From Methanomassiliicoccales archaeon (GTDB lineage Archaea > Thermoplasmatota > Thermoplasmata > Methanomassiliicoccales > UBA472): a DNA stretch of 64,000 nucleotides. This document shows positions 1,556 through 14,135 of the stretch, one piece after another. The position numbers and the translations under genes were made by a program. The stretch's first letter is position 1. Every line of letters starts with the position of its first letter. The stretch is taken from contig JAPKYJ010000013.1 of assembly GCA_026394375.1 (NCBI GenBank), forward strand, positions 2,089-66,088. The letters run 5' to 3'. The notes beneath the pieces are model-generated. The model was not told where the DNA came from. It did no database searches and saw only the letters and a list, made by a program, of their open reading frames with translations.

Positions 1556-2629
1556 ATGAAAGAAACGATAAAACCAGTGAATGCCAGGTCACGGACTGTG
1601 GCCATCATCGGAGGGGGCGTCGCCGGGCTCTCGGCGGCGGTGCAGTTGGCGGAGAAGGGGATCAGGCCAGTCATATTGGAGAGCGAGCCCGAGCTTGGTG
1701 GCAAGGTCAAGGCATACGGCTGCAAGGGCGTGCGGGAGTGCGTTCATTGCGACGTGTGCCTCAGTGTCAACTTGATTAAGGAAGTGAAACGCCTGGGCGT
1801 GGAGCGGTTCAAGGGCGCCAAGGTCCTTTCTCTGAGCGGCAGGCCGGGCAGATACCGCCTGCGCCTCAGCGTCGGTGGGTCCTCTTCCACAAGAACGCTC
1901 AGCGTCGGGACGATCATAGTCGCAACGGGTGCCGAGCCGTTCGATCCCTCGGTCGAGAAGCGCCTCTCCCACGGGCGGATCAAGGACGTCATCTCGGCCG
2001 TGGAGGCGGAGCACCAGATCCGTGCCTCGGGCAAGCTGCTCGTCCCTTCCACCGGCATGGCGCCAAAGAGCGTGGCCTTCGTGCAGTGCGTCGGCTCCCG
2101 GGACCTGAGCAAAGGGTCGGGGGCATGTTCCAAGGCCTGCTGCAAGTACTCGTGGAAGATGGCGCAACTGCTGAAGCGCATAGACCCGGAGACATCGATA
2201 CTCTACCTCTTCATGGACTGGCGTCCGGTGGATGCGCAGGACGACATCCGTTCTTGGGCGGCGGGGCAGAAGAACGTGAGGCTGATCCGCTCCCGGCCCT
2301 CCGAAGTTCTGCTCGGCGAAGATGGCAGGCCGGTAGTGAGATTCGCCACCGGCGACGATTCGATCATCGAGGAGGAGGCTGTGGACCTGGTCATCCTTTC
2401 CGTGGGAATGGTCCCTTCTGCAGGTTCGAAGGAGCTCAGCCATGCCCTGAGACTCGAGGAGGACGCCCAGGGCTTCATTCTCACCAGCGAGCTGGATAGG
2501 CATCAGACCTCAAGACCTGGTGTATACGCAGCCGGCAGCTGCACCGGGTCGAAGGACATCCGGGAGAGCGCCAAGGACGGAGAGAGGGCCGCTGGAGCGG
2601 CTGCGAGATCGCTGGAGGAGATGCAATGA
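1556..2629 (+). CDS. hdrA: HdrA-like FAD-dependent oxidoreductase, N-terminal part of a split HdrA
   Basis: Rossmann FAD motif VAIIGGGVAGLSAAVQLAEKG, cysteine cluster ECVHCDVC, and ...VQCVGSRD...CSKACC... as in heterodisulfide reductase A / thioredoxin-reductase-like domains. Its stop overlaps the next start (ATGA at 2626-2629). Confidence 0.75.
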   Translation: MKETIKPVNARSRTVAIIGGGVAGLSAAVQLAEKGIRPVILESEPELGGKVKAYGCKGVRECVHCDVCLSVNLIKEVKRLGVERFKGAKVLSLSGRPGRYRLRLSVGGSSSTRTLSVGTIIVATGAEPFDPSVEKRLSHGRIKDVISAVEAEHQIRASGKLLVPSTGMAPKSVAFVQCVGSRDLSKGSGACSKACCKYSWKMAQLLKRIDPETSILYLFMDWRPVDAQDDIRSWAAGQKNVRLIRSRPSEVLLGEDGRPVVRFATGDDSIIEEEAVDLVILSVGMVPSAGSKELSHALRLEEDAQGFILTSELDRHQTSRPGVYAAGSCTGSKDIRESAKDGERAAGAAARSLEEMQ

Positions 2630-4203
2630 GCGAGAAGCGTATCGGCGTCTTCATCTGCGAATCTGCGGGCGGAAGCGAGGGATCGCTGGACCTGCGCTCC
2701 CTGGGCAAGCACGTCTCATCCTTGCCAGAGGTCTCGTTCGTTCGCTTCATCGATCAGGTGTGCAAGGAGACTGGTCAGGCCCAGATGCTGCAGGCGTTGA
2801 ATAAGGACGAGGTCGATCGTTTCGTCGTCGCCGCTTGTTCGCCTCTGAGCAAGGAGCGAATGCTGATGCGGTTGGCGGCCGAGGCCGGACTGAACCCTTT
2901 CATGTTCACCATCGCGAACGTCCGCGAGCAGAGCGCCTTCGTTCATTCGAAAGCAGGGGCCGACCTGAAAGCAAAGAGGTTGCTGAGGATGGCCGTGGAG
3001 AAGTGCCGCCTGCTCGCACCAGCGCCTTACGATGTCAGGATCCCTGATAGCAGGACGGTGCTCGTCGTCGGGGACGGCCTGAGGGCGGCCTTGGCGGCGG
3101 AGGATCTGCGAGCCCTCGACCTCGAGGTCATGATACTGGTGGAAGAAGGCATGCTGCGATTGCCTCGCTTTCTCGATCCCACGCTAGCCGAGGCGTTGAA
3201 GCGCAGCGAGGAGGGTTCTCCGATCATATCCGGGCACTTGGCATCACTGGATGGGGTTCCAGGAGCATTCGATGTGCTCACAGAAGGAAAGACCTCCGGA
3301 GCGGTCAGATGCGGTGCGGTGATCATAGCGTTCGATCCTTTGCCCGCGAAGCTCGAAGAAGGTATCATGGGCCCGATGCATTTCGAGGAGCTCATGGCCG
3401 GCGGAGCGCGGCTGCCTCTTTCCCTTGTGATCGTGGTCGACGATTGGAAATCGGAGTTCCACTCACCTCAGGCCATGGAATGGGCCATGCGAACGGCGGT
3501 AGCGGTGCGAACAAGGTCGCCCGAGTCCTCGGTGCGCATCCTTTGTAGGGACATCTCCTCGAGGGGCGAGCTGGAATCGGAACAGCTTCGAGCGCAACGC
3601 CATGGAACAATCTTCATGAGAACGGAACGAGCGCCCACTGTCACCCCCGGAGAAAGAGCGATCGTCAGAACGGTCGACCCCATCGTCGGAGAGCTGGCCC
3701 TGGATGCGGACGCAGTGATTCTGGTTGGTTCAGATCTGAACGCGGGAAGCGCGAGCACCTGTTTCGTTCTTGGGTTGGCGATGCGTCCCGACGGCATGCC
3801 TCGAGAATCGAAGGTAAGGCTGCGCGCTGGGGAGAGTCTGCGGGCCGGGATCTACGTCATCGATCCATGGAGCGAGTGGAGCAGTGGGGACGTCCGATTG
3901 GATTGTGCGGCCGTTGCGGCCAGAGCGGCCGCCCTCCTGCTTTCTCCGGGGATCGAAGAGGGCGGTGCGGTGGCCCAGGTCGAGGCAGGCAAGTGCTCGG
4001 CCTGCCTGAGCTGCGTGCGCATCTGTCCCTATGGTGCACCATACGTCACGGACGAGGGCAAGGCAGAGGTCAGATACGAGCTGTGCCAGGGCTGCGGGAT
4101 GTGCGTGACCTCCTGCCCCGGCAAGGCCATCGACATGCATTGCTACTCCGACGCCCAGATAGCTGCGGAAGGGAAGGCGGCGCTCAAGGAGCCACGTCCA
4201 TGA
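2626..4203 (+). CDS. hdrA: HdrA-like protein, C-terminal part with a 2x[4Fe-4S] ferredoxin domain
   Basis: Contains IGVFICES...DRFVVAACSP (HdrA-type domain), a degenerate second Rossmann segment VLVVGDGLRAALAA, and C-terminal CSACLSCVRICP / CQGCGMCVTSCP ferredoxin motifs. It is translationally coupled on both sides. Confidence 0.75.
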   Translation: MSEKRIGVFICESAGGSEGSLDLRSLGKHVSSLPEVSFVRFIDQVCKETGQAQMLQALNKDEVDRFVVAACSPLSKERMLMRLAAEAGLNPFMFTIANVREQSAFVHSKAGADLKAKRLLRMAVEKCRLLAPAPYDVRIPDSRTVLVVGDGLRAALAAEDLRALDLEVMILVEEGMLRLPRFLDPTLAEALKRSEEGSPIISGHLASLDGVPGAFDVLTEGKTSGAVRCGAVIIAFDPLPAKLEEGIMGPMHFEELMAGGARLPLSLVIVVDDWKSEFHSPQAMEWAMRTAVAVRTRSPESSVRILCRDISSRGELESEQLRAQRHGTIFMRTERAPTVTPGERAIVRTVDPIVGELALDADAVILVGSDLNAGSASTCFVLGLAMRPDGMPRESKVRLRAGESLRAGIYVIDPWSEWSSGDVRLDCAAVAARAAALLLSPGIEEGGAVAQVEAGKCSACLSCVRICPYGAPYVTDEGKAEVRYELCQGCGMCVTSCPGKAIDMHCYSDAQIAAEGKAALKEPRP

Positions 4204-4601
4204 AGATCATCGGCTACGTCTGCTCACACGCCGGCTACGCAGCAGCGGACCTGGCCGGAGAAGAGCGACTGCAATATTCCCCGGACATAATTCTGATCCG
4301 ACTGCCATGTGCCGGTCGGATCGACGTCGTACATTTGCTCAAGGCGTTCCGCGAAGGGGCCGACATGCTCTTCGTGGCGGGATGCCTGGAAGGAAACTGC
4401 CACCATCACTATGGCAATCACGAAGCCAGGAAGCGCGTCGATCAGGCCAAGAGCATCCTGGATGCATTGGGCATGGATGGACGGAGGATAGAGATGTTCT
4501 ACCTTGCCTCCAACCAGGGCTGGAAGTTCAAGGAGATCGCGGATGAGATGATGAGAAGGGCGAGCGAGCTAGGGTCGAACCCACTGGAGGCGAAGGGATG
4601 A
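4200..4601 (+). CDS. mvhD: MvhD/FlpD-like [2Fe-2S] electron-transfer protein
   Basis: Internal ATG at 4200 within track ORF 3867..4601, overlapping the previous stop (ATGA). Sequence MKIIGYVCSHAGY...LPCAGRIDVVHLLKAF..GADMLFVAGCLEGNCHHHYGN is the typical MvhD pattern. Confidence 0.85.
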   Translation: MKIIGYVCSHAGYAAADLAGEERLQYSPDIILIRLPCAGRIDVVHLLKAFREGADMLFVAGCLEGNCHHHYGNHEARKRVDQAKSILDALGMDGRRIEMFYLASNQGWKFKEIADEMMRRASELGSNPLEAKG

Positions 4602-5293
4602 TAATCGGAGAACAGAAGCCGCTCCAGGAGATCTGCGCCATGCTCGAGGGACATCAGCGCATCCTAGTGGCAGGCTGTCGTTCCTGCGTGGCCATTTGCC
4701 TCGCGGGCGGAGAGAAGGAGGTGGGCATCTTGGCGGAGAGCTTGCGCCTGCACTCCGACCTCCGAGGAAGGAATTGGGAGGTGACCGAGTTCACCACGGA
4801 GAGGCAATGCGAGAAAGAGTGGGTGCGTGAGCTCTCCGACCTGGTGGCCAAGAGCGACGCGGTCGTCTCCATCGCTTGCGGGGTTGGGGCGCAAACCATC
4901 CAGGCGCTTTTCCCGGAAGTGAGGGTCCTTCCCGGGCTTAACACTTCGAACATGGGTGCGCCCGAAGAACCGGGCGTTTTCATGGAGAAATGCGGGGGCT
5001 GCGGTGACTGCGTTCTGCATCTGACCGGAGGGATATGTCCCATCGTCCGCTGCGCCAAGAGCCTGCTCAACGGTCCCTGCGGAGGGAGCCAGAACGGCAA
5101 GTGCGAGATCGGTCACGATACGCCCTGTGCCTGGGAGGAGATCTACCACTCGCTCGAGCGCCTTGATCGATTGGACCTGCTGGAGGAGCTGATACCTCCG
5201 AAGAACTGGATGCCCAGCCGTAGCGGCGGACCGAGGAGGATCATCAGGCCGGAGGCGGTCCTGACCAGGGAAGAGAAGGAGATGAGAGGATGA
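4598..5293 (+). CDS. metV: MetV, methylene-THF reductase-associated Cys-rich subunit
   Basis: CGGCGDCVLHLTGGICPIVRCAKSLLNGPCGGSQNGKCE resembles the MTHFR C-terminal-like/MetV family. It lies directly upstream of metF and is coupled to it by an ATGA overlap. Confidence 0.8.
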   Translation: MIIGEQKPLQEICAMLEGHQRILVAGCRSCVAICLAGGEKEVGILAESLRLHSDLRGRNWEVTEFTTERQCEKEWVRELSDLVAKSDAVVSIACGVGAQTIQALFPEVRVLPGLNTSNMGAPEEPGVFMEKCGGCGDCVLHLTGGICPIVRCAKSLLNGPCGGSQNGKCEIGHDTPCAWEEIYHSLERLDRLDLLEELIPPKNWMPSRSGGPRRIIRPEAVLTREEKEMRG

Positions 5294-6210
5294 AGGCGGG
5301 CAGCAACTTGGAGAAGGTGCTTTGCGATGGGAGGTTCGCCGTCACGGCGGAGATCGGGCCGCCCAAGTCCGCCAGCGCCGAGAGCGTCCGTCGACACGCG
5401 AAGGAGATGCGAGGTTGTGCGGACGCCTTCAATCTCACCGACAACCAGATCGCCATGGCCAGGATGTCGTCCATCGCCGCTGCGGTCGTTCTCATCGAGG
5501 AAGGCCTGGAACCGGTCATCCAGATGACCTGTCGGGACAGGAACCGGATCGCCATGCAATCCGATATCCTGGGGGCATCGGCGTTGGGCATTAAGAACGT
5601 GCTTTGCATCAGCGGCGACCATCAAACCTTCGGTAACCAGAAGGAAGCGAAGAACGTGTACGACGTCGACTCCATCCAGGAACTGATGATCCTGCGCAAG
5701 ATGAGGGACGAAGGCCGAGTGTGGAGCGACGAGGAACTGGAAGTAGCTCCAAGACTTTTCCTGGGCGCGGCGGCCAATCCTTTTGCCGATCCATTCGAGT
5801 TCCGGGTCGCCAGGCTGGCAAAGAAGGTGAGGGCGGGAGCGGATTTCGTGCAGACGCAGAGCATCTTCGACATGGAACGCTTCGAAAGGTGGATGGAGCT
5901 CGTTCGGGTCAGGGGGCTGCATGAGGATGTGCATATACTGGCGGGCATCCTGCCGCTGAAATCGCACAGGGTGGCGCTCTACATGAAGAACAAGGTGTCA
6001 GGCATGATCGTTCCCGATGCCATAGTCGAGCGCATGAAGGCGGCCAAGGACCCGAAGGAGGAAGGCATCCGCATCTGCGTAGAGCAGATCGAGCATCTGC
6101 GGAGCATCGAAGGAGTGCATGGCGTGCACATCATGGCGCCCTTGTGGGAAGAGAAGGTGCCAGAGATCGTCCGCAGAGCGAGATTGCGTCCAGATGCTCG
6201 AATCGAGTGA
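5290..6210 (+). CDS. metF: 5,10-methylenetetrahydrofolate reductase
   Basis: 306 aa. Motifs VTAEIGPPK, FNLTDNQ, QMTCRDRNR, ISGDH and FVQTQSIFD are characteristic of MetF-type MTHFR. Confidence 0.9.
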   Translation: MKAGSNLEKVLCDGRFAVTAEIGPPKSASAESVRRHAKEMRGCADAFNLTDNQIAMARMSSIAAAVVLIEEGLEPVIQMTCRDRNRIAMQSDILGASALGIKNVLCISGDHQTFGNQKEAKNVYDVDSIQELMILRKMRDEGRVWSDEELEVAPRLFLGAAANPFADPFEFRVARLAKKVRAGADFVQTQSIFDMERFERWMELVRVRGLHEDVHILAGILPLKSHRVALYMKNKVSGMIVPDAIVERMKAAKDPKEEGIRICVEQIEHLRSIEGVHGVHIMAPLWEEKVPEIVRRARLRPDARIE

Positions 6211-6375
6211 GAGGTATGTGCACCGAGGCTTCAATGAAGACATGTTCTATCCTAGACGGTCTGGAATCATCACTGGTATACGGTCAGGGAGCGAGTCCTT
6301 CGAGGGGGGGCTCCTGGCGCATGAGAAAGTACTTATCTACCTGGAAACGAGGACATAGCAGGACAAGTGAGATCG

Positions 6376-6606
6376 ATGTCGCAGGTCAACCTTGATTGCC
6401 GGGGACAGAACTGCCCCGTTCCTTTGGTGGAAGTGAGGAAGGCGCTGAAGAAAGCGGCCGTCGGGGATGTCATTGAGGTCGTCGGAACACATCCCTCATC
6501 AAAGAAAGAGATACCGATGGCAGTGGACGCGCTGGAGCAGCAGTTGCTGGAAGTGAAGGACAACGGTCCGGAGTGGATCATCCGCATCAAGAAGGTGAAG
6601 GGGTGA
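6376..6606 (+). CDS. tusA: TusA/SirA-like sulfur carrier protein
   Basis: LDCRGQNCPVPLVEVRKALKK carries the CPxP active-site motif. The size (76-79 aa) fits the family. I prefer ATG 6376 over the track GTG 6367. Confidence 0.8.
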   Translation: MSQVNLDCRGQNCPVPLVEVRKALKKAAVGDVIEVVGTHPSSKKEIPMAVDALEQQLLEVKDNGPEWIIRIKKVKG

Positions 6607-6610
6607 TAGA

Positions 6611-7030
6611 GTGACCCAGAAGACGACCATAGTCGTGCACAGCGGCGACATGGACAAGGTGTTCAGCGCATTCATCATCGCCAACGGCTCCATGGCCATG
6701 GGCATGGAGGCTACGCTCTACTTCACTTTCTGGGGTCTCAATCGTCTCAAGAAGGGAGGATTGGACAAAGGCCCCCTCTCCCAGATGAACATGCTTGGCC
6801 TGGGAAGAAGGATGGTCAGGCAGCGGATGGAGAAGGCGAACGTGGCCAAGTTGGAGCAGATGGTCAAGGACTTCAAGGAGCTAGGGGGCAAGATCATCGC
6901 CTGTGAGATGACCATGGAGATCATGGGGATCAAGAAGGAGGACCTCCGGCTGGATTGGATCGATGAGTTCGGTGCCGTGGGCACATACGTGAACGAAGCG
7001 AGGAAATCGGACATCACGCTATTCATCTGA
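6611..7030 (+). CDS. DsrE/DsrF-like family protein (COG2210-type)
   Basis: 139 aa. TIVVHSGDMDKVFSAFIIANG...ATLYFTFWGL...KIIACEMTMEIMG shows the typical DsrE-like fold signature. The GTG start is 4 nt after the tusA stop. Confidence 0.7.
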   Translation: MTQKTTIVVHSGDMDKVFSAFIIANGSMAMGMEATLYFTFWGLNRLKKGGLDKGPLSQMNMLGLGRRMVRQRMEKANVAKLEQMVKDFKELGGKIIACEMTMEIMGIKKEDLRLDWIDEFGAVGTYVNEARKSDITLFI

Positions 7031-7031
7031 G

Positions 7032-8204
7032 GTGTTCTCATTGCCCGACAGGACGATCTACATGGACAACGCCGCCTCCACCAGGCTGGACGGGCGCGTG
7101 CTGGAGGCGATGAAGCCCTATTACTTCGATTCCTATGCGGTGGCGACATCGGAGTTCGGGCATTCCATGGGCATCGAGGCCAAGGAGACGCTGGAAGCAG
7201 CGCGAGTGAAGCTGGCCGAGGCGCTCAAAGCCTCTCCCGAGGAGGTGCTGCTCACTTCCGGGGATACGGAATCAAGCAACCTGGCCCTCAAAGGAGTGAC
7301 CAATGCCCTTGCGGGCAAGAAGGGCAAGCACATCGTCGTATCGAAGATCGAGGACTTTCCTGTTCTGAACAGCGCCAAGGCGTTGGAGAGGTTGGGCTAC
7401 AAGGTCACCTATCTGGGAGTGGACAAAGAGGGCTTCCTGGACCTGGCGGAGCTGGAGCGCTCCATAACCAAGGAAACCGTCCTGGTCTCGATCCAGCACG
7501 CCAACCAGGAGATCGGGACCGTGCAGGACATCGAGGCGATCGGGAAGATCTGCCATGATAGAGGGGCGCTATTCCATACGGACGCCACCCATACGCTCAC
7601 CCGCATTCCATTGGACATGGGCCGAATGGCGGTGGACCTGGCCACGATAACCGCCCACACCATCCACGGTCCAAAAGGGATCGGGGCGCTCTACGTCCGC
7701 AAGGGCACTCCTCTGATGAAATGGATGGACGGCGGGTTCCAGGAGTTCAATCTGCGGGCGGGACTGGAGAACATCCCGGGAGCGATGGGATTCGCCAAAG
7801 CCATAGAACTGGTGACCGAAGAGGAGAACGAGCGCCTCCGCGCCATCCGCGACTCGCTCATAGACAGCTTGCTGAAGCAGGTGCCTCGGACGACCCTGAA
7901 CGGCTCTCGGACCAGGAGGATCCCTCAGAACGCCAACATCACCTTCCACCGCGTGGAGGGCGAGTCGATAACCCTCCATTTGGACATGCGAGGCATCGAG
8001 GTCTCCACCGGCTCGGCCTGCTTCTCCCGGTCGTTGGAGGCCAGCCACGTGATCATGGGCATCGGTGGGGACCACGAGCGGGCGCACGGGTCCATACGAT
8101 ATTCACTGGGCCGATTCAACGACATTAGCGAGGTGCCAGAGGTCGTGAAGGCGATGACGGACATCATCGGAAGATTGCGGAGCATCAGCCCGCTGAAGGA
8201 TTGA
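7032..8204 (+). CDS. iscS: IscS/NifS-like protein (class V aminotransferase fold) lacking the canonical PLP-binding lysine
   Basis: Contains [28 protein letters not shown], and the catalytic-loop [16 protein letters not shown]. The expected SGHK(I)YGPKG reads [19 protein letters not shown] here, with a Thr codon at 7659-7661. Confidence 0.85.
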   Translation: [390 protein letters not shown]

Positions 8205-8217
8205 GGAGGTTCAGAGC

Positions 8218-8856
8218 ATGAAGTTCCCGTACGGAGAGAAGGTTCTGGAGCATTTCAAGAACCCCAAGAACGTGGGCAAGATAGAGGACGCTGACGGAAA
8301 GGCCATCGTGGGAAGCCCGGCATGCGGAGACATGGTGGCGGTGTACCTGAAGATCGATCCGAACGAGAACCGGATCGTGGACGCGAAGTTCGAATCCTAT
8401 GGATGCGCTTCGAACATAGCCACCGGCTCGATCATCACCGAGCTGGCCAAAGGGAAGACCATAGAAGAGGCCAAGAAGATAAGCTGGCAACAGGCCTCGG
8501 AGGCATTGGGCGGGCTGCCGAAGATAAAGGCGCACTGCTCAGTGCTGGCCGTGGAAGGCCTCCGCGAGGCCATCACCAATTACGAGGAGAAGCACGGTCT
8601 GATCAAGGAGCGAGAGCCGACCACGGCGGAGCTGGTGAAGCGCCGCCTCAAGAACGTGATGAATCCGCTCACTGGTCTGGACATCGTTCGCGGCAACCTC
8701 ATCAAGGAAGTGAAGGTGGAGGAGGGGGTGGTCAAGATCTCGGTGGACCTGCCTGAGAGCCACATCTTCGCCAGCAACATCAAGGAAGAGGTCAACGAGC
8801 GCATCGAGACCCTGTGGGACGTGAAGAAGGTGGAGATCAGCTTCAATCCTGCTTAG
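8218..8856 (+). CDS. iscU: IscU/NifU-N Fe-S scaffold fused to a DUF59 (MIP18/SufT-like) domain
   Basis: The N-terminal part has all scaffold ligands (GSPACGDMV, SYGCASNIA, KAHCSVLA). The C-terminal ~85 aa (NPLTGLDIVRGNLIKEVKVEEGVVKISVDL...) looks like a DUF59 domain. Confidence 0.85.
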   Translation: MKFPYGEKVLEHFKNPKNVGKIEDADGKAIVGSPACGDMVAVYLKIDPNENRIVDAKFESYGCASNIATGSIITELAKGKTIEEAKKISWQQASEALGGLPKIKAHCSVLAVEGLREAITNYEEKHGLIKEREPTTAELVKRRLKNVMNPLTGLDIVRGNLIKEVKVEEGVVKISVDLPESHIFASNIKEEVNERIETLWDVKKVEISFNPA

Positions 8857-12896: not shown

Positions 12897-12961
12897 GCGC
12901 TCCGCCCGCGCTCGACGAAAAAAACAATACCCCGAGCAGGAATGCTTTCTCAGGGATTCAA

Positions 12962-13411
12962 ATGGTGGGACCACAAGAGAACGAGGTCATTGAGCAATCA
13001 TTGGAGAATGTGGACGCAGCGAAGGGCATGGCGGGCTTGCAGCGCAAGTACGACGTATTTTTCACCAACAACGGGATCGCGATGCTGGTGGTGGAAGGGG
13101 CGGCCAAGGTGGGAGTGAGTGCAGGCCCAGCAACGCATTTCATAAACAAGGCCATTTCCCAGAAGCGGGCGGAGAACACACGAGTTGGATACCAAGGGAT
13201 GTCTCTGAAGGAGATGCTGGCAAAGAACGACAAGAGCGTCTACTTCCCGTACTCGGACGTGAAAAGCATCAGCTTAAAGAAGAGCTTGATGGGAGCCGCG
13301 CTCACATTCGAGGTCCCGGACAGCAAGTACAACTGCCGCTTCTCGAAAGAGCAGATGGGCTCGGCAGAGCGGGCGATCGCCGATCGCCTGGCCGCAAAGG
13401 TCGTGCAGTGA
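12962..13411 (+). CDS. hypothetical protein
   Basis: From track ORF 12893..13411. I prefer ATG 12962 over the TTG that overlaps the purH stop. I recognise no motif. Confidence 0.4.
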   Translation: MVGPQENEVIEQSLENVDAAKGMAGLQRKYDVFFTNNGIAMLVVEGAAKVGVSAGPATHFINKAISQKRAENTRVGYQGMSLKEMLAKNDKSVYFPYSDVKSISLKKSLMGAALTFEVPDSKYNCRFSKEQMGSAERAIADRLAAKVVQ

Positions 13412-13562
13412 TCTGAGGGCGCTTGGTAACTGAGGATCGAGGTGAGCTTCAGAGCAAGCCAGTGTCCTCCGGAAGAAGGTCTCAGACCCAGATGGGCGCG
13501 GGGTCGCTCATCGGGCTCAGCGTTATCTATTCCTCCAGGCAATCCGGGGGCGAGGTGAGCGG

Positions 13563-14135
13563 ATGAAGAAGTCCCTAGGCGCACGCACCCTTCTATATCC
13601 AACGCCAGTGCTAGTGATCGGAACCTATGATAAGCAGGTAAAACCCAACGCCATGACCGCAGCCTGGGGCGGCATCTGTTGCTCCGACCCTCCTTGCGTT
13701 TCGATCTCGTTGCGCAAGGCCACTTACTCCTATGGCAATATCATGGAGCAGGGCGCGTTCTCTGTGAACGTTCCATCCGAGCAGTACGTTGCGGAGGTTG
13801 ACTACTTCGGCACCGTCAGCGGTCGGGACGAGGATAAGTTCGCCGCCACCAGGCTCACCCCAGTGCGCTCGCAGCTCGTCAACGCCCCCTACATCGAGGA
13901 GTTCCCCCTGGTGCTGGAGTGCGAGATGCTGCACGCCAATGAGATAGGATTGCACACGCAATTCGTCGGCGAGATAAAGGACGTTAAGGTGCAGGAGGAG
14001 CTGGCAGAGAAGAAGGGCGATGGGCTGATCAAGATGATCCGTCCTCTCATATACGCTCCGGACGACCGCAGCTACTATGCGGTGGGAGCGCAGCTCGCAA
14101 AGGCGTTCCAGGAAGGCAACAGGTTTAAGAAATGA
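13563..14135 (+). CDS. flavin reductase-like (flavoredoxin) domain protein
   Basis: [14 protein letters not shown]...[10 protein letters not shown]...FSVNVP...GRDEDKF...PLVLECE matches the flavin-reductase-like FMN-binding fold. Confidence 0.8.

Follow-up and report, generated by a model that had tools for sequence, protein, structure and literature searches.

The operon and its two HdrA-like proteins

The stretch of DNA analyzed here (the window, 64,000 nucleotides from the genome of a Methanomassiliicoccales archaeon) carries on its + strand, at positions 1556-6210, five open reading frames (ORFs) that encode an HdrA-type flavin adenine dinucleotide (FAD) core, a second HdrA-like protein, MvhD, MetV, and MetF, the last two being subunits of a methylene-tetrahydrofolate (methylene-THF) reductase. 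All four junctions between them read ATGA, each stop codon overlapping the next start codon, exactly as an initial annotation of the window had described. The features are as follows.

1522-1529, + strand: TATA-like box TATAAGAA, read from the sequence, 27-34 nt before the first start codon; putative promoter element
1556-2629, + strand: core hdrA, 357 amino acids; Pfam Pyr_redox_2 (9e-20) and other FAD Rossmann families; PDB matches 5odc_A and 6tjr_A
2626-4203, + strand: gene for the second HdrA-like subunit, 525 amino acids; Pfam Fer4 (4Fe-4S ferredoxin) families only; PDB HdrA alignment
4200-4601, + strand: mvhD, 133 amino acids, [2Fe-2S] adaptor; Pfam FlpD (3e-40) and NCBIfam VhuD (3e-41)
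4598-5293, + strand: metV, 231 amino acids, iron-sulfur (Fe-S) subunit of a MetVF-type methylene-THF reductase; Pfam DUF5981 (1e-35)
5290-6210, + strand: metF, 306 amino acids, methylene-tetrahydrofolate reductase catalytic subunit; Pfam MTHFR (4e-40) and NCBIfam

The TATA-like box lies in a divergent intergenic region of ~100 nt upstream of the core hdrA. MvhD has four cysteines (C8, C37, C62, and C67), and 13 cysteines of MetV are invariant in the family alignment.

The 357-residue protein is the thioredoxin reductase (TrxR)-like FAD domain of HdrA alone, without the N-terminal, inserted ferredoxin, and C-terminal ferredoxin domains. It aligns to the TrxR core of solved HdrA (5odc_A residues 145-235 and 320-565, E value of 1e-50), in an alignment that jumps over the inserted ferredoxin domain, and it matches the 349-residue sHdrA of Hyphomicrobium (6tjr_A, E value of 3e-30) over the whole length of the latter. 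The core retains the motif CKGx5Cx2Cx2C (C56/C62/C65/C68), of which C65 and C68 align, by hand count on the alignment, to Cys194 and Cys197 of 5odc. Also intact is the TrxR-domain cluster motif CVGSRD..CSKACC (C178/C191/C195/C196); in canonical structures, this cluster contacts HdrC. E152 and K201 align, by hand count and by conservation across the loci examined, to E356 and K409, the E/K pair that marks bifurcating HdrA flavins (PMC9430772). Beyond its own family, the nearest relatives of the core in an all-against-all search are fused HdrAs of 780-1530 amino acids, which it matches at the N terminus in the class of 916-950 residues and near residues 650-900 in the class of ~1490 residues, positions that agree with the published architectures of the Sporomusa and Moorella HdrAs (PMC9430772).

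The initial annotation had treated the two HdrA-like products as one HdrA divided into parts of 357 and 525 amino acids. Two proteins are indeed present, but the second reads as a whole HdrA fold, a complete paralogue with degenerate flavin sites that keeps its two peripheral cluster domains, rather than as a C-terminal remainder. Its residues 1-173 align to HdrA residues 1-173 and its residues 285-524 to HdrA residues 413-657 (E value of 9e-53, PDB sequence match). Residues 1-130 form an MvhD-like N-terminal domain, residues ~140-440 a TrxR-like body beginning with the Rossmann start VVGDGLRAAL, and residues ~445-510 a C-terminal 2x[4Fe-4S] ferredoxin domain. From a 23-sequence alignment, AlphaFold2 gives a model (predicted local distance difference test score of 88, predicted template modeling score of 0.81) whose top Foldseek matches are full-length HdrA chains (8rvy_A and 7bkd_A, TMq of 0.77-0.80), with sHdrA and thioredoxin reductases matching its middle part. 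In HdrA and family alignments, however, the body has no equivalent of Cys197, of the CVGSRD cluster, of the E/K pair, or of the GG(R/K) or GPKDI-type motifs, and neither the protein nor any of its 18 closest relatives has a match to a Pfam model for FAD or NAD(P) binding. Direct BLAST between the 357- and 525-residue proteins is not significant (E value of 0.22), so that their kinship is visible only via HdrA and the fold. NCBIfam HdrA scores of the two-chain system fall far under the curated cutoffs, and neither protein contains a GltD, Fer4_20, or extra NAD(P)H domain by Pfam and NCBIfam. The N-terminal cluster site, which had been called degenerate, has lost the second Cys of its CxC motif (now C-E-S), but C11, C46, and C71, three of the four canonical cysteines, are invariant in the family. 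We did not find the N-domain cysteines that ligate the A3 cluster named in the open literature.

The two chains form a complementary pair: the core has C65/C68, CVGSRD..CC, and E152/K201, and the second protein has the N-domain and C-terminal clusters and none of those elements. The same division is seen within one polypeptide in Sporomusa ovata, whose HdrCBA-MvhD-MetVF enzyme shares MetF, MetV, and MvhD with the window operon. There, the first part of the 942-residue HdrA is an extra N-terminal TrxR-like domain with the E/K signature, and the second part consists of an MvhD-like domain, a second TrxR-like domain that lacks E/K, and, at the C terminus, a ferredoxin domain, the inserted ferredoxin domain being missing (Kremp, Roth and Muller 2022, PMC9430772). 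The window proteins are collinear with both halves, with the same domain order and content on two polypeptides, which bears out the link to the Moorella-type enzyme that had been drawn for this operon. The systems differ in that S. ovata HdrA has two predicted FAD sites, whereas the second TrxR-like body of the window is without recognizable FAD motifs; that the window operon and contig have no neighboring hdrB, and the window no hdrC-like match; and that the window host is a methanogenic archaeon. Methanomassiliicoccales are described as lacking cytochromes (PMC10804542). The Moorella thermoacetica MetFV-HdrCBA-MvhD complex (Mock et al. 2014, via PMC9430772 and PMC9012536) follows the same MetVF-MvhD-HdrA core logic, and its HdrA likewise contains two HdrA-like halves in which N-domain and Cys197 complement each other. 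At 1487 residues, however, it includes an extra ferredoxin domain and a GltD-type NAD(P)H/FAD domain that the window proteins lack, and the Moorella operon encodes HdrBC, which is also part of the complex as purified, unlike the window operon with no neighboring hdrB-like gene.

Tandem HdrA pairs are also known from anaerobic methanotrophic archaea (ANME), and those with complementary N-domain and Cys197 have been proposed to form heterodimers (Chadwick et al. 2022, PMC9012536). In these pairs (HdrA5/6 and HdrA12/13), the copy with Cys197 lacks the N-terminal domain, as does the window core. The window pair shows this heterodimeric pattern, since core C68 aligns to Cys197 and the 525-residue protein, which has the N-domain, is devoid of Cys in the corresponding stretch. 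But the ANME paralogues are reported to keep all FAD-binding residues, which the second copy of the window appears not to do, and the ANME-1 pairs are not linked to metVF; a MetFV-HdrA-MvhD cluster is noted in that paper only for Ca. Syntrophoarchaeum (PMC9012536). In the canonical MvhADG-HdrABC complex (5ODC, 8RVU, PMC13518236), HdrA is a homodimer of a 650-residue, four-domain chain. In the window, by contrast, the domains are spread over two unequal chains, the inserted ferredoxin domain is missing, CxC reads C-E-S, and MetVF occupies the operon place expected for hydrogenase or HdrBC partners. Judged by sequence, then, "split HdrA" is correct relative to the acetogen-type protein, and the pair is a tandem of two unequal paralogues relative to methanogen HdrA. 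Finally, MetVF-only (type II) reductases such as that of Clostridium ljungdahlii (PMC8760232) share MetF and MetV with the window but lack HdrA and MvhD.

Distribution of the split form, of HdrB-like neighbors, and of the ferredoxin branch

The host genome (1.73 Mb, 99.8% complete) contains mcrA, and its nearest relatives are labeled Methanomassiliicoccales or Methanomassiliicoccaceae. The order core hdrA/second hdrA/mvhD/metV/metF is kept in about 25 genomes of Methanomassiliicoccales/Thermoplasmata, and all loci examined in the Methanomassiliicoccales families f1, f2, f3, f5, and f6 have it. It was found in eleven loci from genomes of the same order, with three further genera checked directly, in three public contigs that also share the upstream FolD, Fhs, DUF3786, and deacetylase genes, and in another 20 loci of the split type that a MetV-based scan of species-representative genomes brought up, in part from genomes also in the other sets. 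Among split loci, the HdrA parts are 30-57% identical and MetV and MetF 60-85%. The linkage of mvhD to metV is kept in all loci examined, with mvhD always directly upstream.

A MetV homologue search gave at least 120 matches, all those listed being of the Methanomassiliicoccales type; bacteria were reached by a MetV-alignment scan of genome contigs, of which the 80 best loci were used. Sporomusa and Moorella themselves are not among these 80, and the comparison with them therefore rests on their published description. The reduced form had been described for an archaeon, and the window host is one, but split forms occur also in Actinomycetota (L098 and L101) and Thermodesulfobacteriota (L060), as well as at L056. 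Fused variants include Anaerolineae HdrAs of 1450-1600 residues and two Bacillota metagenome-assembled genomes (MAGs) in which core, second HdrA, and MvhD form one chain. In a tree of MetV plus MetF, the 20 split-type Methanomassiliicoccales sequences lie on one branch (support of 100 in the Shimodaira-Hasegawa-like approximate likelihood ratio test), and all 22 archaeal rows lie on one side of a branch (95). This tree is unrooted and limited to the 80 loci of highest similarity, so that a direction of transfer cannot be read from it. Two archaeal-labeled loci, L055 (titled Thermoplasmata archaeon bin33, on a 5.16-Mb chromosome) and L070, have fused Moorella/Chloroflexi-like HdrAs of 1470 and 1085 residues with mvhD-metVF and branch with bacterial sequences; the label or binning of L055 may deserve a check, since a 5.2-Mb Thermoplasmata chromosome is unusual.

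MTHFR is found in 76 of the 151 genomes of an order sample. In the family f7 genomes checked (L118, L119, and L121), metVF stands without adjacent hdrA or mvhD, and the f4 locus L120 has metF alone, so that MetVF-only and HdrA-coupled reductases both exist in Methanomassiliicoccales.

No HdrB or HdrC had been seen in the window by the initial annotation, which is borne out: Pfam finds no CCG (HdrB) domain on the 194-kb contig (C31) and no Fer4_8 (HdrC-like) match inside the window. Co-transcription of hdrBC from just outside, which had been raised as a way to overturn that reading, is excluded upstream, where only a divergent deacetylase/DUF3786 pair and Fhs are found. With a CCG profile built from the host genome's own 26 CCG domains and run on loci with at least 5 kb upstream and at least 4 kb downstream of metV, a CCG ORF lies beside the operon in none of 16 archaeal loci and in 27 of 32 bacterial loci, in bacteria usually directly after metF. 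The missing neighboring HdrB-like gene is thus a lineage trait of the archaeal loci. The description of the operon as a reduced HdrA-MvhD-MetVF variant stands to this extent, but a complex lacking HdrBC is not established, because elsewhere the host genome has 12 CCG-domain ORFs, together with several HdrC-like ORFs. The genome also has ten MvhD domains and about ten paralogues of HdrA. A stand-alone hdrC-hdrB pair lies at C28:105343-106502. Neither this pair nor any other particular HdrBC paralogue could be tied to the operon. The absence of hdrB beside the operon does not show its absence from the enzyme, and HdrBC may be recruited in trans. Methanogens commonly have hdrA and hdrBC at separate loci.

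The sister lineages differ in the elements of the low-potential ferredoxin branch. In the cryo-EM structure of Hdr-Vhu-Fwd, the low-potential path includes the A3 cluster of the N-domain as well as the inserted ferredoxin domain, and the MvhD-type [2Fe-2S] cluster is the input to the flavin (PMC13518236). The loci fall out as follows.

Families f3 and f5 (L026, L028-L032, L036, L038, L039, L042): core of 404-440 residues with an inserted 2x[4Fe-4S] domain; second-HdrA N-domain with canonical C-x-C-G (in L032 and L036 the called ORF begins after this motif, which is thus unreadable there)
The window's group: core without the insert; second-HdrA N-domain with C-[ESK]-[SFW]; C11, C46, and C71 invariant
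Methanomassiliicoccus-type loci, including that of the cultured Methanomassiliicoccus luminyensis, and L035: core without the insert; entire second-HdrA N-domain missing
L050-L054: core with the insert; second-HdrA N-domain with C-R-[AG]-H

The second Cys of CxC is never present without the insert (15 of 15 loci). A strict co-variation of the two was considered and rejected, as L050-L054 keep the insert without the second Cys. Because the inserted domain is absent, the window enzyme would be without the canonical ferredoxin exit, like the Sporomusa and Moorella HdrAs. The E/K signature also varies among these loci: its Lys is replaced by Gly or Ala in L029 and L030/L039 (family f3), despite the inserted ferredoxin domain and CxC, and by Arg in the bacterial split forms and L050-L054.

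Proposed electron path and competing explanations

The genes present, their domains and conserved residues, the gene order, and the occurrence of the operon across genomes are shown by the data above; the formation of a complex, its electron path and direction, and its partner are inferred. We consider it likely (probability of roughly 70%) that the operon encodes the methylene-THF reductase/methyl-THF dehydrogenase of a folate Wood-Ljungdahl pathway, in which MetF, MetV, and MvhD work with an asymmetric HdrA heterodimer whose outward partner is encoded elsewhere. Taken together, the two HdrA-like proteins would be the counterpart of the one fused HdrA in the Sporomusa-type MetVF-HdrCBA-MvhD enzyme. 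In such a heterodimer, the 357-residue core would carry the sole functional flavin, marked by the E/K signature, along with the TrxR-domain [4Fe-4S] cluster and the Cys197-type cysteine, and the 525-residue protein would be a paralogue of HdrA whose own body no longer has flavin and cluster sites. Electrons would pass from the MetF flavin through the MetV clusters and the MvhD [2Fe-2S] cluster to the C-terminal ferredoxin domain and the core FAD, and then by way of the core [4Fe-4S] cluster to a partner outside the operon, for which an HdrBC/HdrD-type module encoded elsewhere seems the likeliest candidate. With such a partner, methyl-THF/methylene-THF (about -200 mV) would be coupled to the heterodisulfide/ferredoxin pool instead of NAD(P)H. 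The window lineage, where the inserted ferredoxin domain that serves as the canonical low-potential exit is absent, would for that reason not be expected to reduce ferredoxin by canonical bifurcation; sister families with the inserted domain may do so. An HdrA-MvhD-coupled MetVF would remove the need for NAD(P)H at the methyl-/methylene-THF step, and an Fe-S-wired oxidoreductase is therefore favored.

Several points weigh against parts of this scheme. First, a GxGxxA Rossmann motif persists in the 525-residue protein, whose flavin-less status is read from motifs. Second, the N-domain cluster, and hence some low-potential route, may survive, because three of its cysteines are still invariant. 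Third, the association between the insert and CxC is not strict, given the archaeal L050-L054 that keep the former without the second Cys. Finally, here as in the bacterial enzyme, MetV could dock either on MvhD or on the usual HdrC site.

Of the alternatives, the one that fares best is that the enzyme is not reduced at all but is an acetogen-like six-subunit MetVF-HdrABC-MvhD complex, drawing HdrB and HdrC from an unlinked locus. The 12 CCG-domain ORFs, the several HdrC-like ORFs, and the hdrC-hdrB pair on C28 could supply these subunits, and the core cluster at which HdrC is contacted in canonical structures is retained. Such an arrangement has precedent, as hdrA and hdrBC are often unlinked; a survey of bifurcating enzymes takes this to be so for Met complexes, and in it Poudel et al. 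list a Methanomassiliicoccus "Met" homologue with MetF, MetV, and MvhD colocalized and HdrABC not (PMC6085437). Set against this are the uniform loss of the neighboring copy across the archaeal clade, when bacteria keep it, and the lack of any specific HdrBC paralogue that could be tied to the operon. This form of the enzyme seems to us quite possible, at somewhat less than even odds.

It is less easy to accept that the enzyme dispenses with HdrBC entirely. In this version, MetVF takes the structural place of HdrCB in a bifurcating or confurcating enzyme that accepts electrons on MvhD from a donor such as H2 through MvhAG; of the two electrons leaving the flavin, one would reach MetV/MetF and methylene-THF through the [4Fe-4S] cluster of the core, and ferredoxin would take up the other. 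MetV is, like HdrC, a poly-[4Fe-4S] protein (PMC9430772), the core retains the E/K signature, MvhA is encoded on C5 of the host genome, sister families keep the inserted ferredoxin domain and CxC, and no CCG gene lies beside any of the 16 well-flanked archaeal loci. But the inserted domain is absent in the window lineage, and the MvhAG locus has its own mvhD. Moreover, mvhD always stands directly upstream of metV and some Bacillota fuse MvhD to the C terminus of HdrA, an arrangement that MvhD as a bridge between HdrA and MetV fits equally well or better. Bacterial homologues keep both MetVF and an HdrB-like gene, so that MetVF is no simple replacement for HdrCB there. We regard this explanation as unlikely, and it is similarly doubtful that the five products form a self-contained, HdrBC-free complex that feeds methyl-THF electrons directly into the heterodisulfide/ferredoxin network.

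Two further proposals can be set aside with more confidence. An sHdr-like sulfur reaction, in which the HdrA pair would serve the TusA/DsrE-like sulfur-relay proteins encoded downstream and not MetVF, could draw on the resemblance of the core to Hyphomicrobium sHdrA (6TJR), which has a similar core-only architecture and is encoded with hdrB1/B2/C1/C2 and genes for lipoate-binding protein, and on the tusA and dsrE-like genes that follow metF after 156 nt and recur downstream in L019 and L020. However, the window core is translationally coupled by its overlaps to mvhD-metV-metF and not to tusA, the tusA block is not adjacent in L018, and the IscS/IscU-type genes that come after tusA point to a role in Fe-S or thiolation biosynthesis. 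There is also no sHdr-type hdrB (CCG) on the contig and no HdrC-like match in the window, nor any lbpA among the ORFs examined (no search aimed at lbpA was made), and the proposal is very improbable. The last, that one fused gene such as those found in bacteria and the two Thermoplasmatota loci L055 and L070 was broken into two hdrA genes by a frameshift in assembly or sequencing, is refuted by the conservation of the split: with its 4-nt start/stop overlap it recurs in about 25 genomes that were assembled independently, at protein identities of 30-57%, and it occurs also in Actinomycetota and Thermodesulfobacteriota.

The operon is thus, by its sequence, a split, HdrBC-unlinked archaeal variant of a known enzyme; the identity of the second redox partner of HdrA-containing methylene-THF reductases is a standing question in acetogen bioenergetics (PMC9430772). 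As far as we found, the apparently flavin-less second HdrA, the uniform loss of the neighboring HdrB-like gene in the archaeal clade, and the lineage-specific presence or loss of ferredoxin-branch elements are new. With one functional flavin predicted, no NAD(P)H domain, and no neighboring HdrB-like gene, the archaeal operon would encode a stripped-down enzyme, and because close relatives differ only in ferredoxin-branch elements, it would be a convenient minimal system in which to study MetV docking, the need for HdrBC, and the parts required for bifurcation. Folate pathways are known in Methanomassiliicoccales, and methanol disproportionation through methyl-THF oxidation has been proposed there (Speth and Orphan, PMC6147122). 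The operon bears on those proposals, as it points to a folate C1 branch in environmental Methanomassiliicoccales that is coupled to Fe-S/heterodisulfide chemistry and not to NAD(P)H. Speth and Orphan (2018) pointed out that no link is known from the assumed folate-pathway NAD(P)H to ferredoxin (PMC6147122). If the self-contained complex considered above were real, it would fill this gap between folate-pathway reducing equivalents and ferredoxin, and H2-independent methyl disproportionation or folate-based autotrophy would become possible in environmental members of the order. The orthologous operons would then also provide a natural series (full ferredoxin branch, none, no N-domain) that isolates the structural needs of flavin-based bifurcation.

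Genomic surroundings and other HdrA genes

Upstream of the operon, the polysaccharide deacetylase/DUF3786 pair on the opposite strand is followed by Fhs, and the contig beyond the window start holds only Fhs. Downstream lie a gene for a pterin-binding methyltransferase and a PurH-like ORF, the latter named from its translation alone. With these neighbors, the operon lies within a cluster of folate C1 genes. The block at window positions 6367-8856, on the same strand as the operon, encodes TusA (Pfam 4e-21), a DsrE2-like protein (4e-36), and IscS-like and IscU-type ORFs, the last two named from their translations and from the Pfam labels of matching genes in L019.

The host genome includes a dense Hdr/Mvh island (G000:C5:71-15541). 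Besides two double-HdrA fusions of ~1000 residues, it encodes two more HdrA paralogues, a CCG protein, three MvhD domains, and the only [NiFe] hydrogenase large subunit that is clearly recognizable. In the double-HdrA fusions the N-domain half comes first and the core half second, the reverse of the order in the window pair. A second core-only HdrA of 357 residues, 34% identical to the window core, lies on C1 (G000:C1:19406-20437; L011:1480-2553) with no MvhD or MetVF nearby; its neighbors are genes for an S-adenosylmethionine-dependent methyltransferase and for ABC ATPases, and a relation to the operon was rejected. Fused HdrAs of 895 and 919 residues (P0045 and P0051), found with the 525-residue query, are not in a metVF context and were set aside as uninformative. 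In one Methanomassiliicoccaceae MAG, the core hdrA is in two ORFs of 194 and 187 residues (L041:6495-7503), possibly a frameshift in the assembly or a pseudogene.

In three relatives, a multi-pass membrane protein of ~370 residues with no Pfam match is encoded right after metF (L018:11555-12655; L019:11738-12880 and 12940-14073, in two copies; L020:11662-12804). It is not at the equivalent position in the window, and a homologue is encoded elsewhere in the host genome (G000:C24:8363-9436, 32% identity, E value of 4e-34). This protein could be relevant because the Sporomusa enzyme is membrane-associated via a further partner.

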